A DNA stretch of 32,000 nucleotides from Candidatus Electrothrix yaqonensis (GCA_047651235.1 CP178758.1:240001-272000), one strand, 5' to 3'; positions 6,278 to 29,334 are shown, counted from the stretch's first letter. Notes: generated by a model from the sequence alone, not told the origin. Program-made: numbers and translations.

Positions 6278-7033
6278 CAGGGCTGTTCAATTCTATAAGA
6301 GCTTGTATTTTCAAGACGTATGCAGTAATTGATACAGAAAAACTTTACACGAGGATTCTGCATGCTGTTTTTTTGCTGAACACAATCAAAGATCATCGAC
6401 GCGGGCAGGGCCGGCGATATGAGCTTACGCATATTCTTCTGTTTTCGATCATGGCGATCCTGAGCGGTTCGGATTCTTATCGCAAAATCCATCTGTTCGT
6501 TGATGCGCATCGTGAAAGGCTCAATGAATATTTCGGCCTGGACTGGAAAAAAGCTCCTGCATATACAACGATCCGCACTGTCATTCTGAATACTTCCGGT
6601 TCGGAACTTGAGCGGATTTTCAGGGAGCACGGCAAAGCTCTCGCGGAAGAGGAACCGGACGGAGAATTTATTCGTTGCGACGGCAAAACTCTCCGGGGAA
6701 GTTTCGATAACATGAAGGATATTAATCAGCTTCAGATATTGAGTGCTTTTGCTGGCGACCGCGCCGTCGTTCTCGGCCATGAAGAAATCAGGGAGAAAAG
6801 CAATGAAATCCCGGCGGCGCGGAAACTGATGAAAGAACTCGGTTTATCCGACCGCATTTGACCGCTCCCGAATTCGTTGCAATCCGCACATATTTGCGAA
6901 ACTGAGAAGCTTCGCTCTCAATATTCTTCGTAAGAACAAGGTGAAAAATGTCAGCCGGGAGCTTTTCAGGAACTGTATGGATATAAATCGTCTGTTTGAT
7001 TACGCCGGGATTTTCTAGAATTGAACAGCCCTG
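6278..7033 (+). mobile_element. defective, internally deleted ISAs1-family insertion sequence with intact terminal inverted repeats and a 9-bp target-site duplication
   Basis: IRL CAGGGCTGTTCAATTCTA (6278-6295) is the exact reverse complement of IRR TAGAATTGAACAGCCCTG (7016-7033). Flanking direct repeats ATGTAGACC sit at 6268-6276 and 7034-7042. At about 756 bp the element is far shorter than a full ISAs1 element. Confidence 0.85.
6373..7018 (+). pseudogene. ISAs1-family (H-repeat-associated) transposase remnant with the DDE core deleted and a frame change
   Basis: ORF 6373..6861 carries the N-terminal region (IKDHRRGQGRRYELTHILLFSIMAILSG, CDGKTLRGSFD, KSNEIPAARKLM). A different frame at 6872..7018 encodes the family C-terminus (FAKLRSFALNILRKNKVKNVSRELFRNCMDINRLFDYAGIF*). 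The catalytic middle of roughly 200 aa is missing, and I saw no ATG start. Confidence 0.8.
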
Positions 7034-10987: not shown

Positions 10988-11217
10988 TCAATCGCGCAGG
11001 CTGCATCCCGGATACAGTGAAACGACTGCGACCCGATCTGTTGACCAGTTATGGCCGCTCGAAATCCCTGTACAGCAGAAAGGAAAAAGCGTTTTGGGCG
11101 GTCGTAATGTATCCACAAGGCAGTCTCACCAACGCCAAGCTGCCAGCGGACCGCTTTCAGATCAAAATCGCAGCAGAGCATTCGGGCGACCTCGCACTCT
11201 GCTGCTGAAGAAAAAAA

Positions 11218-11584
11218 CGGGGCGGACTGTAAGCCGAATTTTGTTCCTGCCGAAGCAGGCCATGATCATTTGACTGGGATGCCGGTCACCCGGCACCTCG
11301 TGCAACCCACCCGGAAACCTTGGACGGGCAGTCCTCAGACGTTTCCCTATTTGGTCTTGCACCCGGCGGGGTTTACCCTGCCCTCCATGTCACCATGAAG
11401 GCGGTGAGCTCTTACCTCACCATTTCAACCTTGCCTGTGAACGGAGCGCCCGTTCCATCGGCGGTGTGTTTTCTGTGGCACTTTCCTCCGGTTACCCGAA
11501 GTTCCTGTTAGGAACCGCTGTGCCCTGTGGTGTTCGGACTTTCCTCTCCGGCATAAAGACCGGAGCGATCATGCGTCCGCCCCG
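11218..11584 (-). ncRNA. rnpB: RNase P RNA, bacterial type A
   Basis: The minus strand contains GAGGAAAGTCCGAAC, CACAGAAAACACACCGCCGATGG, GGTAAGAGCTCACC, GGTAAACCCCGCCGGGTGCAAGACCAAATAGGGA and ACAAAATTCGGCTTACAG. P1 pairs GGGGCGGAC with GTCCGCCCC, and P2 pairs CATGATC with GATCATG. A T-run follows the 3' end. The ends are approximate to within about 5 nt. Confidence 0.93.
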
Positions 11585-14725: not shown

Positions 14726-14751
14726 CTGCAGAACCTTTCAGGAAATTGACG

Positions 14752-16482
14752 ATGCATTCAATAAGGGAACAGTTACTTGGCAGTATTTCCTCTGGATTTT
14801 TTTTAGAGGTTGCTTGTCGTGTTTATCTGGAAAACCATGATAAAAAAGAATCAGTTGGTCAGGAAGTTGCTGATCTTCATAATGCAGGAAAGATTGATGC
14901 AATAGCAGAATTCAGGAAGCTCAAGAGTTCAGATCAACAGCATGATTTTTTCATGACCCGACATGTACTGGAGCATGCCCTGCCAAGCATAGAATCCCCG
15001 GTTGCCGCCGTGATGGACTGCGTCAAGCATCTTGTAGAAGAAGCGGGAAATAATATGGCCGCTGGCACACTGATTCCCCCGTTCATCGACTTCTGTGAGG
15101 CAGATGCAGGACGACCTGACGAAGTCCTCTCTGCCGCTTTAAATGAGGTTGATGATACCTTTGACTTCATAACTCCGGCAATTACTGCCGGTTCTAACCT
15201 CCAACTGGAGCAATATGCAAACAAGGCGGTCGAGCTGTGCTCTCACGAAAATATCCTGATCCGCTCCCGAGCTGTTCATGCACTTGGCCGTATAAAATAT
15301 CACGACCGTGAGGAGCTGATTAGTAAATCCTTGCAGGCTATCCAAACGACACTTGAGCAGGATTGCGATGAATACTTGTATGCAGCTATATTGAGATCTA
15401 CTGTTGCACTGTACAAAGCAGATAACAGCACTGAAAAACACGCTATCAAACTTCTACAACATATCCTTCCGCAACAGGATGATATCGTTCTATATGAAGC
15501 AGCTCAATGTCTCTTCTCAAAACTGCCTGCCAGCATGGTTGATCTCCTGCTTAACACCTTGGCTCAAATAAACATTCAACGTATCAATATAATAAGAGAT
15601 ATAGATTTCGGCCTTTGCTCTTTGATCAAGCATGGGATGCGTGAAAAAGTTCTCTTGTTCCTTGAGAAGTTACTTGTTCAGAGAGAGCAGGAATTTTCCA
15701 TTAGGCAATTTGATACACTGAACTTGGCAATTTGTAATAACAAAGAGGGGTATCTCGATTTTCTCATCACCCGCTGGCTGCTCTCCAAGCAAGTGGCCTT
15801 AGGTCGTGCGGCTGCTGATTTACTGGAGAATACGTCAGAGTATGGTACACCTGTTGCGGTTGACCTTGACCAATTGCAGGAATTGCCCGAAGGAATTCGT
15901 GTCTTTCTGGTAAGAAAAGCCTGCGGTTGGTTCTTTCATAAGCCTATAAGTGCGACCAGCTTCATTGTGTCCTTGATTGATACTGCCTCAGGCGATGAAA
16001 TCGAAGAGATAACCGACATCTTGTTTCATCCTCTTTTGATCAACTATTCCGGCTGCGTAAAGGATTATCTTGTCAAAACAGTTGAGGAAGAACCTTCCGA
16101 AAAGGTAAAGCTTGTTATCGATACTGTTCTCGAACAGCTTAAAAACTATCATGAAAGTTTAAATTCATCAATTAGCGAACTGCAACCAACACAAGCACAA
16201 AGAGAGGTTTTTCATCGGTATCAAAGCAGATTATTTGCTGAGTCGTACAAAGTAGCTCAGGAGAATTCAATATTTAATTTGATTACAACTAAGATGTGTA
16301 TATTGTACGGAACTCGTTCTGTTTATTATATTCATCATGGCCCCGGCGACCAAAAGAGCAGGCAGGAAATGGCATTAGCAGAACACAGCCATTATTTTGA
16401 ACTCCCATCTCTCGAACGTATCGATCCGCACGGACTTGATTACACCTTGTATGTTTTTCGCGTAGAAGGATGTGACTCATGA
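14752..16482 (+). CDS. hypothetical large alpha-helical protein with HEAT/PBS-lyase-like repeat(s); first gene of the AT-rich two-gene module
   Basis: The ORF track starts at TTG 14746. ATG 14752 is preceded by AGGA about 8 nt upstream. ENILIRSRAVHALGRIKYHD matches the HEAT_PBS-type repeat pattern. The rest is helical repeat-like, with a short beta-like C-terminal region. The stop overlaps the next start (ATGA at 16479-16482). Confidence 0.7.
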   Translation: MHSIREQLLGSISSGFFLEVACRVYLENHDKKESVGQEVADLHNAGKIDAIAEFRKLKSSDQQHDFFMTRHVLEHALPSIESPVAAVMDCVKHLVEEAGNNMAAGTLIPPFIDFCEADAGRPDEVLSAALNEVDDTFDFITPAITAGSNLQLEQYANKAVELCSHENILIRSRAVHALGRIKYHDREELISKSLQAIQTTLEQDCDEYLYAAILRSTVALYKADNSTEKHAIKLLQHILPQQDDIVLYEAAQCLFSKLPASMVDLLLNTLAQINIQRINIIRDIDFGLCSLIKHGMREKVLLFLEKLLVQREQEFSIRQFDTLNLAICNNKEGYLDFLITRWLLSKQVALGRAAADLLENTSEYGTPVAVDLDQLQELPEGIRVFLVRKACGWFFHKPISATSFIVSLIDTASGDEIEEITDILFHPLLINYSGCVKDYLVKTVEEEPSEKVKLVIDTVLEQLKNYHESLNSSISELQPTQAQREVFHRYQSRLFAESYKVAQENSIFNLITTKMCILYGTRSVYYIHHGPGDQKSRQEMALAEHSHYFELPSLERIDPHGLDYTLYVFRVEGCDS

Positions 16483-18320
16483 AGCTCATTATTCGGGAAT
16501 ATCTCGCCTCGTTACGGGAAAGAAAGGAGCTGGATGCCCTGCTTCCTGATCTGCTTTCCCAAATGGGCTTAGATGTCTTTTCAAAACCGGGCATAGGCAA
16601 TCGGCAATATGGCGTAGATGTCGCTGCCTTTGGCAGTATTGACGATCAACCAGAGAAAGTTTATCTGGTTTCAATTAAGTCAGGAGACTTGGGGAGAAAG
16701 GATTGGAACAGTGGCTCGATTCAGGATCTCCAGCCCTCACTGGATGAAATCCGTGATACCTATATCCCTACACACCTGCCTGCCGAATATAAAAACAAAC
16801 CTATAGAAATAGGAGTTACGCAGTTGGTTTTATAACCCGTTGGTTTTGTTCAACTGACGGTTTAAACCTCCAACAGGAGAACCTATTGTAACAATTGAGC
16901 TTCTTGTTTTCAACTGCGTAACTCCTAAGAAATTTGCATATGCTTTGGAGGCGAACTTAAGCGTCAAATTCATCAACGAGTTTCTTTATACGAAGAAAAA
17001 AACAGCACAGATCAGATCTCTTTCAGCAGATGGGATGGAGAAAAATTAGCAGGATATATTGAAAAATTTCTTCTGCGTGAAGAACTGCTGCCAAAAAATT
17101 GCCGTCGCCTGCTCAGGAAATCCCTGGCCATGCTTGACGAACCGGATGTTTCGCACAGGCATTTTTGCGAGCTGATCAAGCTGCTGGCAGATAATGAGGG
17201 CAAGAAACCGAAAGAAATTCTGACCGCAATGAGGCAGCTCAATTTATGCTTGTGGATTCTTTATACTTGGTGTCGAGAATCGGATAATCTCGAAAGCGCC
17301 TTCCTTTCCGGCGAACGGGCAGTGTTAACGGCTTGGTTCATGGGTAAACCATTCCTTGAAAAGAAAGGCAAAATTTCAACAGCCCTGTTTGAAACATCAG
17401 GCTCCATCTTACTCCTCTACACGCAGATAGCCCATTATTTTCTGGCAAACAAAATCCTTCCTCATACAGGAAAACTGTATGCGATTTCCAGAGCAACAGC
17501 TCCATCTTGTGCTCTGGATGTCAATCTGAAACTCTTTGATCTTCTCGGTAGACTGGCTTTATCTGGGCTTTGGTTATATTGGTGGTTAAATTACTTTCCC
17601 CAGGATAAGGATGATTCGCAGGAAAAGAGAAAAGAAATCCAGCAAGGAATTGCACAATATCAGATTGGTATAAAACAGCTTATAGCAAACAATCCGATCC
17701 TGTTTACTCCATATAAGGACGACCAAGCAATAGACATAGCACTTGCAGCCTTTTTTCTATCCATTGACCAAAGAAACCACGGTAACCTTTATGAGTGGTT
17801 GAACAATATGGTTCATATAATTCATTTCCTTTTTCAGACAAACAGTACCTATCCTTGTAATCTTCATAATTACTATGAACTCTTAGATCACCCGGTACGG
17901 GAAAGGGAAGACTATCAAAAGAATGTCACAAGTGCGAGCGTTCTGTATCCCACCATTGCGGTATTCGCCGCGTTGCTCGGATTTGAAGATATCTATTCAT
18001 CCGTGCAGAAGATCAAATCCGATTTTTTAGAGCATTGCGATTTTCAGTATTGGTACCCAGATGCCAGCTCAGAGGAACATTACTACACGAATGATGCACT
18101 TCATGGTGCTGCATTTCTTGGTGTATATATCGACAAAGATCACAAGAGTTTCTTGGATGACCTATTCAACGAGTGCGAGGAGTCAGCACATTTTCATGAA
18201 TTGAGTGCGATCAAGTATGGGCACTGGCCTCTCCTCCTCCTTGCCTCCAGGCATTACCGACTGCCAATTCCTCTGTATTTTTTGAAGAATCTGAGCGGTT
18301 CAAAAGAGCAGACTGAATGA
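16479..18320 (+). pseudogene. gene for a 572-aa protein (Mrr/PD-(D/E)xK-like N-terminal domain plus a large helical C-terminal domain), interrupted by a MITE
   Basis: ORF 16479..16835 terminates inside the MITE. The same frame is open again from 16929 to 18320 (the track shows only 17130..18320). Deleting 16810..16932 (123 nt) fuses ...EYKNKPIEI to CICFGGELKRQIHQRVSLYEE... in frame. The N-terminal motif is LLPDLLSQMGLDVFSKPGIGNRQYGVDVAAFG-x12-VYLVSIKSGDL. Confidence 0.75.
16810..16927. mobile_element. 118-bp MITE, copy 1 (17-bp perfect terminal inverted repeats, 5-bp TSD AGAAA)
   Basis: TAGGAGTTACGCAGTTG (16810-16826) pairs with CAACTGCGTAACTCCTA (16911-16927). AGAAA flanks both sides (16805-16809 and 16928-16932). 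It is about 90% identical (12 mismatches by hand alignment) to the reverse complement of copy 2. Confidence 0.9.
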
Positions 18321-28169: not shown

Positions 28170-28733
28170 ATGTCTGCATTTCAGCCGAAAATATTATATT
28201 TTTTATGCGGTTGGTCGTATCCGGCTGCAGCGTACCCGGCAGGTACAGACCGTTATCAGCATTTGGCCAATCTACGGACCATCCGCATGCTGTGTACCGA
28301 CGGGCCGGATCCTTCCTTTCCCTTGGAAGGACTGGCCAACGGAGCTGATGCTGTCGTTGTGGGCAGTGTTTATCCTGATGAATGCCATTCTGCGGACAGG
28401 AATGACCATGCCCTGATTTCAGTCTGCCTGGTGCATGCGGTTCTGGACCGGCTGGGCGTCAACCGGCAACGTTTTCTGGTTGACTGGACTTTGGCTGCAG
28501 AAGGCCAGAACTTTTTCAGAAGCATTGCGCAATTTGCCGGAAAAGCTGCTGAACTTGGCCCCCTGGGCAAGGCTGAGGGGATGGATCAGGTGGAGCTGCG
28601 GGAAAAGCTGAAGGATGCAGCAGAGACCGCCCGGAGCCTGAAGGTATGCGCTGCCCTGACCAATTCCAATTCTAATAGGAGTTACGCAGTTGAAAACAGG
28701 AAGCGCAGTTGTTACAATAGGTTCGCTTGTTAG
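28170..28733 (+). CDS. MvhD/FlpD-like (hydrogenase/heterodisulfide-reductase-associated iron-sulfur subunit family) protein, with its 3' end altered by a MITE insertion
   Basis: ILYFLCGWSYPAAAYPAGTDRYQHLANLRTIRMLCTDGPDPSFPLEGLANGADAVVVGSVYPDECHS is colinear with the MvhD motif FxCNWCSYxGAD...IRVMCSGRVDP...GADGVLVxGCHxGDCHY, but two of the five Cys positions in that remembered motif are replaced. The last 19 codons and the stop are MITE sequence. Confidence 0.65.
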   Translation: MSAFQPKILYFLCGWSYPAAAYPAGTDRYQHLANLRTIRMLCTDGPDPSFPLEGLANGADAVVVGSVYPDECHSADRNDHALISVCLVHAVLDRLGVNRQRFLVDWTLAAEGQNFFRSIAQFAGKAAELGPLGKAEGMDQVELREKLKDAAETARSLKVCAALTNSNSNRSYAVENRKRSCYNRFAC

Positions 28734-28793
28734 AGCTGCAAACCGTCAGTTGAACAAAATCAACGGGTTGTAAATCCAACTGCGTAACTCCTA
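28676..28793. mobile_element. 118-bp MITE, copy 2 (inverted relative to copy 1; 5-bp TSD TCTAA)
   Basis: It has the same 17-bp termini, TAGGAGTTACGCAGTTG (28676-28692) and CAACTGCGTAACTCCTA (28777-28793). TCTAA flanks both sides (28671-28675 and 28794-28798). Confidence 0.9.
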
Positions 28794-28989
28794 TCTAATT
28801 TTAATTCCGGCAGACAAAGAATGAAGCTGAGCGGGAGCGAATCTTCCCCTGCGGCTGTTGCCGGAAATGCAGCGTCTGACAGTGGCAACGTTTTATTCTT
28901 TCATAAAGATTTCAATAAAAACAAAAGGGGAAATGCCCCGTTTTTCAGGTCAGCCGACCTGTTCAATCAACATATCAGGAGAGATTATC

Positions 28990-29334
28990 ATGCTTGAAGT
29001 AACCGAAGCCGCAGTAACAAATGTCAAAGAATATCTGAGTCAGCAGAATATCGAGTCTGCTGTCCGCATCATCGTGACGTCCGGGGGCTGCTCCGGCCCC
29101 GGTCTCGGTCTGGCCATTGACGAGGCCAAGGAAAATGATCTGACCTTTGAGCAGGACGGGGTCAATTTTGTCGTGGAAAAAGGACTTTCCGAGACATGTG
29201 GTGCCATTAAAGTAGATTTTGTCGAATCAGGAAGCGGCTGCGGCTGTTCCGGTGGCGGTTTCAGTATTGCCAGTGAAAATCCCCTGCCTGATGCCGGAGG
29301 TGGCTGCAGTTCCTGCGGAGGCTCCTGCGGTTGA
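28990..29334 (+). CDS. HesB/IscA-family Fe-S cluster carrier-like protein with a Cys/Gly-rich C-terminal tail
   Basis: I take the start at ATG 28990, preceded by AGGAGA. MLEVTEAAVTNVKEYL..., VRIIVTSGGCSGPGLGLAID, FEQDGVNFVVEK and VDFVESGSGCGCSGGGFSIASENP fit the family. The tail is AGGGCSSCGGSCG. Confidence 0.7.
   Translation: MLEVTEAAVTNVKEYLSQQNIESAVRIIVTSGGCSGPGLGLAIDEAKENDLTFEQDGVNFVVEKGLSETCGAIKVDFVESGSGCGCSGGGFSIASENPLPDAGGGCSSCGGSCG

Follow-up and report, generated by a model that had tools for sequence, protein, structure and literature searches.

A 32,000-nt stretch of the Candidatus Electrothrix yaqonensis genome (GCA_047651235.1, CP178758.1:240001-272000; hereafter the window) contains two copies of a 118-bp element with terminal inverted repeats (TIRs) and flanking target site duplications (TSDs). 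We consider it very probable that this element is a non-autonomous MITE (miniature inverted-repeat transposable element) that retains nothing but the ends of an ISAba11-type insertion sequence (IS), that is, of an IS belonging to the IS701 family with its DDE transposase. To judge from sequence comparison, one of the two copies splits oloB, which encodes the nuclease of an Olokun anti-phage operon, after codon 110.

Copy 1 occupies positions 16810-16927 of the window on the plus strand, starts and ends with TAGGAGTTACGCAGTTG...CAACTGCGTAACTCCTA and has its TIRs at 16810-16826 and 16911-16927. The pentamer AGAAA stands on both sides of it, at 16805-16809 (left) and 16928-16932 (right). Copy 2 has the same length and lies in the opposite orientation (minus strand, 28676-28793, TIRs at 28676-28692 and 28777-28793), flanked by TCTAA at 28671-28675 and 28794-28798. 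The TIRs are 17 nt long and perfect in both copies. An earlier note on this DNA, made from the sequence alone, had described both copies, and their coordinates, repeats, flanks and orientation were recovered as it gave them. Its conclusion that two independent transpositions had taken place also held, since the TSDs differ and the loci are unrelated. A profile hidden Markov model (HMM) built from 19 family members matched copy 1 with an E value of 2.6e-29 and copy 2 with one of 1.3e-30 (nhmmer), and detected no degenerate copies elsewhere in the window. With up to three mismatches allowed, the terminal 17-mer occurred at four sites in the window, whereas 0.04 were expected (100 shuffles, none of which reached four). 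All four sites are the copies' own TIRs and no further site was found in the window, so that the earlier statement that no autonomous partner with these termini lies there stands. The ends of an ISAs1-like element in the window, CAGGGCTGTTCAATTC..., are different from those of the MITE, as had also been stated.

Between the two copies 12 positions differ, without gaps, and all of them fall within element positions 19 to 95, which agrees with the mostly central differences noted before. The 34 TIR positions are free of these differences, for which simple arithmetic, (84/118)^12, gives 0.017; this suggests that the window copies derive from masters that stayed competent for transposition. The G+C content is 40% for copy 1 and 40 to 43% for the element overall, and that of the window is 51%. 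Stop codons are present in all six reading frames of copy 1 and in five of the six of copy 2, whose stop-free frame comprises 38 codons only. Such a frame is far too short for a transposase. The element has the size (below about 300 to 500 bp) and the lack of a transposase that are typical of a MITE.

Copy 1 lies within a reading frame. As it stands, the open reading frame (ORF) that starts at 16479 enters the element and terminates at 16835, yielding a 118-aa N-terminal peptide, and the four in-frame stops found between 16479 and 18320 all lie inside copy 1. Element and one TSD together measure 123 nt, a multiple of three, and deletion of 16810-16932 joins the two ORF pieces into a single one of 572 aa, both as claimed in the earlier note. 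The 5′ part of oloB (16479-16809, plus strand) comprises codons 1 to 110 and the first base of codon 111. The 3′ part (16933-18320, plus strand) is recorded in the database as a 396-aa fragment only, with a start at 17130. More than 1700 homologs of the restored 572-aa protein are on record, nearly all of about 560 to 590 aa, the best being a 566-aa protein from Candidatus Electrothrix scaldis with 84% identity. In an alignment of ten sequences the junction ...YKNKPIE/ICICFGG... was colinear and gapless with respect to all nine orthologs, none of which carries the 118 bp as coding sequence, and E110, I111 and C112 were invariant. At the DNA level, E. scaldis reads AAGCCTATAGAAATCTGTATCTGCTTTGG at this site (junction core CCTATAGAAATCTGTATCTGC), with AGAAA present once and no element. 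By these alignments the E. scaldis locus is a textbook empty site for copy 1, at the level of both protein and DNA. The filled allele shows the same junction in two independent sequencing runs and their short-read assemblies and is therefore not an assembly artifact. Both short-read contigs that carry it start 30 nt inside the right end of the element, as one would expect where a repeat interrupts k-mer assembly; the break hints at more copies in the source genome.

The 84%-identical E. scaldis ortholog was recognized by PADLOC as OloB with an E value of 8.7e-199, and the gene adjoining oloB in the window as OloA with one of 3.4e-102. The latter gene, oloA (14746-16482, plus strand), is apparently intact and overlaps the start of oloB by 4 nt. 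Adjacent oloA and oloB genes matching the PADLOC models are what defines an Olokun system, the OloB model being scored here on the ortholog. In a 2025 preprint OloB is described as a PD-(D/E)XK nuclease and OloA as its adaptin-like partner; the latter fits the weak HEAT-repeat match (HEAT_2) of the window OloA. No Pfam family was assigned above threshold to either oloA or oloB. The gene pair is flanked by a transketolase gene on one side and by a pair of genes for a histidine phosphatase and a phosphoenolpyruvate-utilizing enzyme on the other. Given the four in-frame stops, OloB is split into the 118-aa N-terminal peptide and a 396-aa remainder that is either untranslated or separately started. 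We therefore regard the Olokun system at this locus as most likely inactive and its defense as probably lost.

A separate observation concerns a short match between oloA and the element. Positions 15184-15210 of oloA agree with the interior of copy 1 (16853-16879) at 23 of 27 positions, a value reached by one of 1000 shuffled queries, and at five of the six positions of this stretch where copy 1 departs from copy 2 it carries the oloA base. The oloA DNA of E. scaldis is different at the 27-nt stretch. The match could reflect short-patch conversion across 1.6 kb, or chance.

Copy 2 represents an independent insertion, into the 3′ region of an mvhD-like gene and upstream of a HesB/IscA-like gene. 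The divergent mvhD/FlpD-like gene (28170-28733, plus strand, Pfam FlpD) takes its last ~19 codons and its stop from the element. Translation with and without the element gave a present length of 187 aa, with about 19 element-encoded residues; the orthologs, at 198 to 209 aa, extend some 35 residues beyond the insertion point. In the same gene CNWCC of the orthologs reads CGWSY and GGCHPGECH reads GSVYPDECH, so that conserved cysteine motifs are lost, and the gene may be a decaying or repurposed paralog.

Seventeen further copies with the interior of the window copies were found in public data, so that the family extends beyond this stretch. They are 115 to 116 bp long and 71 to 81% identical to the window copies, which are 90% identical to each other, and they stem from Ca. 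Electronema, Desulfobulbaceae UBA5173 and two metagenomes. Ca. Electronema sp. KV contributed one copy and Desulfobulbaceae UBA5173 three, while a metagenome scan with the interior motif and the right end yielded 14 and the HMM added copies on the same contigs. In 11 of the 14 copies from the scan the 5-bp TSDs were perfect and mutually different. Weaker full-length HMM matches came from Thiotrichaceae, Thiomargarita and Competibacter. Most relatives have only the ~20 to 26 terminal nucleotides in common with the window copies. The window's own best protein matches are in Ca. Electrothrix, which makes a cable bacterium of the Desulfobulbaceae its very probable source. On three contigs (L128, L134 and L040) two or three copies of the lineage lie within 3 to 8 kb, which indicates a high local density in the organisms concerned.

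The identity of the parent elements emerged from the terminus itself. The exact 17-mer, searched in one genome per species, matched at least 120 genome stretches; by our estimate, chance would account for a few dozen matches to a 17-mer in that collection. Among the 120 matches listed, which come from many bacterial phyla and several archaeal groups, 66 are paired with an inverted terminus no more than 1.4 kb away and a further 14 lie next to coding sequence for a transposase; another 26 are cut off by a contig end, and only 14 stand alone. The matches are mostly not due to chance. The paired termini fall into two size classes, one of 83 to 290 bp (MITEs) and one of 1040 to 1138 bp (ISs). In the long class a single ORF of ~335 aa fills the element and has its stop inside the right TIR (...ACT GCG TAA), as in the ISs L070 and L074, the transposases of which scored 384 to 398 bits against the NCBIfam model NF049921 (transpos_IS701_2, IS701 family transposase; cutoff 250). 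The ~335-aa transposase also matches Pfam DDE_5 and DDE_Tnp_1. It is 62% identical to a gene on a Gloeocapsa plasmid, and in a tblastn search of plasmid records 38 to 39% identical, with E about 1e-49, to entries labeled 'IS701-like element ISAba11 family transposase'. In the transposase alignment D84, D167, E264 and K271 (E-x6-K) and several H residues are invariant. Rieck et al. in 2012 reportedly described an 'HHEK' signature of ISAba11-family transposases.

At nine loci (L057, L070, L074, L084, L085, L090, L099, L113 and L127) the TIR pairs lie 1040 to 1138 bp apart and enclose transposase sequence; five of these pairs are flanked by perfect 5-bp direct repeats and two by perfect 6-bp ones. 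The element of Gloeocapsa sp. PCC 7428 plasmid pGLO7428.01 (L127, 361-1411) is 1051 bp long, with the end CAGGAGTTACGCAGTTG and the TSD ATGCT. ISAba11 itself, as carried by pNDM-AP_882 (L126), measures 1101 bp, with TAGGACTTACGCA...TGCGTAAGTCCTA as its termini and TATAG on either side; the published 5-bp direct repeats of ISAba11 are TATAG and ATTTA (PMC7885321). Autonomous ISs with the identical 17-nt TIR and a 5-bp TSD thus exist outside the window, and they combine a transposase above the model cutoff, ISAba11-like termini and 5-bp direct repeats. On the strength of the shared termini, the IS701-family transposase and the 5-bp TSD we therefore attribute the window element to the ISAba11 group, as a transposase-less derivative. 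The earlier note had called the family new. This is overstated, since the element falls within the ISAba11 group of the IS701 family, whose terminus many phyla have in common. A literature search for the terminus sequence found no paper quoting it, chance primer matches aside (ISfinder entries lay outside this search). Nor did a literature search for ISAba11 together with MITE turn up a description of an ISAba11-derived MITE; IS701 and ISAba11 are both absent from a 2024 review of MITEs in prokaryotes (PMC10969869).

The exact terminus also appears in archaeal assemblies, namely of Methanosarcinaceae, Methanothrix, Methanoregulaceae, Methanomicrobiales and Nitrososphaerales (L085, L003, L008, L069, L094, L096). 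At L085 it is part of a full-length element, and the transposase encoded there shares 50% identity with that from Poribacteria. These occurrences point to transfer between domains or to binning contamination. A single match came from a viral collection; it lies on an IMG/VR contig as the right terminus of a full-length IS and does not affect the conclusions.

Direct repeats were surveyed over 83 terminus pairs, taken from public loci and from the window. In 41 of the 83 the direct repeat is exact and 5 bp long, against about 0.1 expected by chance, and in nine more a single mismatch separates the two 5-bp repeats. All duplicated pentamers are different and AT-rich, so that they are not part of the repeat. 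The flanks show a roughly symmetrical preference for A at -2 and T at +6, to which both window sites, CCTAT-AGAAA-TTTGC and CCAAT-TCTAA-TTTTA, conform. Read together, these sequence comparisons show that the 118-bp unit was inserted, that its target was duplicated and that it belongs to the family.

The proposed course of events is that of a MITE. A transposase acting in trans would bind the two identical 17-nt termini and cut the element out; the element would then be joined into a staggered 5-bp cut in an AT-rich target, and repair of the stagger would create the 5-bp duplication. Landing after codon 110 of oloB, copy 1 brought with it four in-frame stops. The size and ends of the element, TSDs of fixed length and varied sequence, multiple unrelated loci and matching autonomous elements all bear out this interpretation, as does the empty site available for copy 1. 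The mobilizing enzyme and any present-day activity are what we infer from this picture.

Several results weigh against it. The similarity of the MITE interior to any full-length IS recovered stops ~20 to 26 nt from each end, and the interior is not recognizable as a deletion derivative of any of these ISs. No intact ISAba11-type transposase was found in the source genome; a query with the cable-bacterial transposase C-terminus gave fragments of 37 to 74 aa only, none of them from the 3.74-Mb source contig. The window copies may therefore be immobile fossils, or they may be mobilized by a transposase elsewhere in the genome. For copy 2 no empty site at the DNA level was obtained from the best orthologs, because these are only 54 to 59% identical in protein. 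Finally, 14 of the 83 terminus pairs have an exact 6-bp repeat and three an exact 7-bp repeat, so that the superfamily does not hold strictly to a 5-bp stagger. The 6-bp repeats (L003, L027, L037, L076, L084, L088, L089, L096, L098, L102, L103, L107, L113, L117) and 7-bp repeats (L055, L082, L121) sometimes occur in a genome that also holds 5-bp cases, and every 6-mer ends in A or T; a variable stagger and a carried-over donor base are candidate causes.

In cable bacteria no full-length partner was found. The locus L079 is a degraded left-end fragment, and L052 and L138 show only the last ~25 to 40 transposase codons and the TIR, with right ends cut by contig breaks. In Ca. Electronema aureum (L142, 2126-2644) a ruvC gene called at 102 aa is directly followed by a 47-aa remnant of an ISAba11-type transposase C-terminus, and this ruvC may have been truncated by the IS remnant.

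A broader proposal, which we hold to be unlikely as a whole, would see in the element a small exposed part of a MITE/IS superfamily that is very large and undescribed. A single exact 17-nt terminus of the ISAba11 type, overlapping the transposase stop, would have persisted in many bacterial phyla and in several orders of archaea and would repeatedly have given rise to unrelated MITE interiors of 83 to 290 bp. As parts of this proposal, the cable-bacterial lineage may be shared with large sulfur bacteria (Thiotrichaceae, Thiomargarita) and Competibacter through horizontal transfer; the element might act on its host, either in oloB as a precisely excisable off-switch or, upstream of the HesB/IscA-like gene, as a promoter that moves; and short-patch conversion would account for the 23 of 27 nt at which copy 1 and oloA agree. 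If copy 1 were excised precisely, the rejoined oloB junction would read CCTATAGAAATTTGC.

The inverted ends of the element would also suit a structured repeat selected by the host, such as an RNA or DNA hairpin of the REP/BIME type or a small-RNA gene. Both copies are indeed predicted to fold into a long hairpin of -44 to -46.5 kcal/mol with z about -6 to -7, and a conserved inner hairpin, GTTGA..TCAAC, as well as a promoter-like site might be taken in the same sense. The long hairpin, however, is simply the TIR stem. The RNAalifold consensus of the 19 copies consists of this stem and the small invariant hairpin, with a covariation term of -0.07 kcal/mol and a compensatory change at one pair only, so that a selected RNA structure is not supported beyond the TIR stem. 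An Rfam scan of the window gave nothing at the element, and REP-like repeats would not be expected to have TSDs, an empty site or a partner that carries a transposase. Copy 1, moreover, lies within a coding sequence and destroys it. Taken together, these points leave the structured repeat with a very small share of the probability.

The promoter-like site is present in both copies as a sigma-70-like TTGAAA-17-TGTTACAAT that begins at the inner edge of one TIR. In copy 1 (16885-16913, minus strand) it reads TTGAAA-17-TACAAT with TG before the -10 box and is antisense to oloB; in copy 2 (28690-28718, plus strand) the same motif faces the HesB/IscA-like ORF at 28858-29334. Both are putative sites by consensus match only, and in the alignment of copies the -10 box is weaker in the other family members.

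Somewhat less probable still is that each copy is a full-length IS that eroded in place, so that no 118-bp unit ever moved. Degraded IS fragments with these ends do exist in cable bacteria (L079, L142), but the 19 copies share the same length of 115 to 118 bp and the same non-transposase interior at unrelated loci in different organisms, and independent deletions would not converge on one such product.

We give hardly any credence to a Tc1/mariner-type MITE of the IS630 family. IS630-derived MITEs are common in bacteria, and the element starts and ends with TA, so that its true ends could be GGAGTT...AACTCC with TA as the duplicated target. The direct repeats, however, lie outside this TA and measure 5 nt, as seen in the two window copies and another 41 pairs; the transposase of the autonomous elements with these ends is of the IS701 and not of the IS630 family; and the Gloeocapsa element has C/G instead of T/A as its terminal base and still shows a 5-bp TSD. 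Neither a duplicated TA nor an IS630-type partner was found. Least probable of all, to the point of being negligible, is that the 118 bp are native coding sequence or an assembly artifact, the multiple-of-three length of element plus TSD notwithstanding, as the four in-frame stops, the gapless absence of the segment from nine of nine aligned orthologs and the identical junction in two independent read sets speak against it.

Two further features of the window were characterized. The ISAs1-like element (756 bp, 6278-7033) has 21-nt inverted ends, CAGGGCTGTTCAATTCTATAA and TTCTAGAATTGAACAGCCCTG, and a single ORF of 162 aa (6373-6861) with a DDE_Tnp_1_assoc domain only; this looks like an ISAs1-type element that has lost internal sequence, without kinship to the MITE. 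A gene for bacterial class A RNase P RNA lies on the minus strand at 11214-11584 (308 bits) and was the sole match of the Rfam scan.

Returning to the ISAba11-derived MITE, its recognition has direct consequences for annotation. The 396-aa 'hypothetical protein' is the tail of a MITE-split oloB, so that this Olokun operon should be scored as disrupted. Copies of the MITE break short-read assemblies of these genomes. Cable-bacterial genomes harbor a dense, AT-targeting MITE lineage, with up to three copies in 3 kb on related contigs, and this lineage inactivates genes, and may also deliver promoters, in organisms still beyond the reach of genetic manipulation. The defined 17-nt end and the candidate intact transposases (L074, L070 and Gloeocapsa) are candidates for a transposon tool. 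The known range of the ISAba11 group, so far mainly Acinetobacter, widens to include diverse environmental bacteria and archaea. The parent family is already known; the element itself is new within it and useful for annotation and for the study of genome plasticity in cable bacteria.

As far as can be judged from its sequence, the element implies nothing new in mechanism and would behave as any bacterial MITE. With ISAba11 of Acinetobacter it shares 12 of the first 13 terminal bases (TAGGACTTACGCA in ISAba11, TAGGAGTTACGCA in the window TIR) and an AT-rich 5-bp target duplication, and ISAba11 and the ISs with the exact TIR are alike in their length of ~1.05 to 1.1 kb and their single DDE transposase of ~335 to 340 aa. 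Unlike ISAba11, the window element is 118 bp long and without a transposase, and the elements with the exact TIR have environmental phyla and archaea as hosts instead of Moraxellaceae, and their transposases are just 38 to 39% identical to that of ISAba11. Closer in their termini are the ISs from Poribacteria and Dehalococcoidia (L074 and L070), with the identical 17-nt TIR and the TSDs ATAGT and TGTAG, and the Gloeocapsa IS, with a TIR that deviates by one mismatch at the terminal base and the 5-bp TSD ATGCT. These three differ from the window element in being autonomous, in their length of 1044 to 1076 bp and in sharing nothing with the MITE interior beyond the ~20 to 26 terminal nucleotides.

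Among bacterial MITEs, the Correia elements of Neisseria are comparable to the window element. MITEAba12 generates 9-bp duplications, while Correia elements duplicate TA. Both differ from the window element in parent family, TSD and sequence. In common with MITEAba12 of Acinetobacter (PMC6382973) and other bacterial MITEs, the window element is short, non-coding and multicopy, has TIRs and TSDs and lies in or near genes; possible outward promoters are a further feature shared with bacterial MITEs in general. Rickettsia palindromic elements, which insert in frame into genes (PMC10969869), resemble copy 1 in their position within coding sequence and in their multiple-of-three length, here with the TSD counted. 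They are, however, translated as part of the host protein, whereas the window element truncates it with four stops in the host frame.

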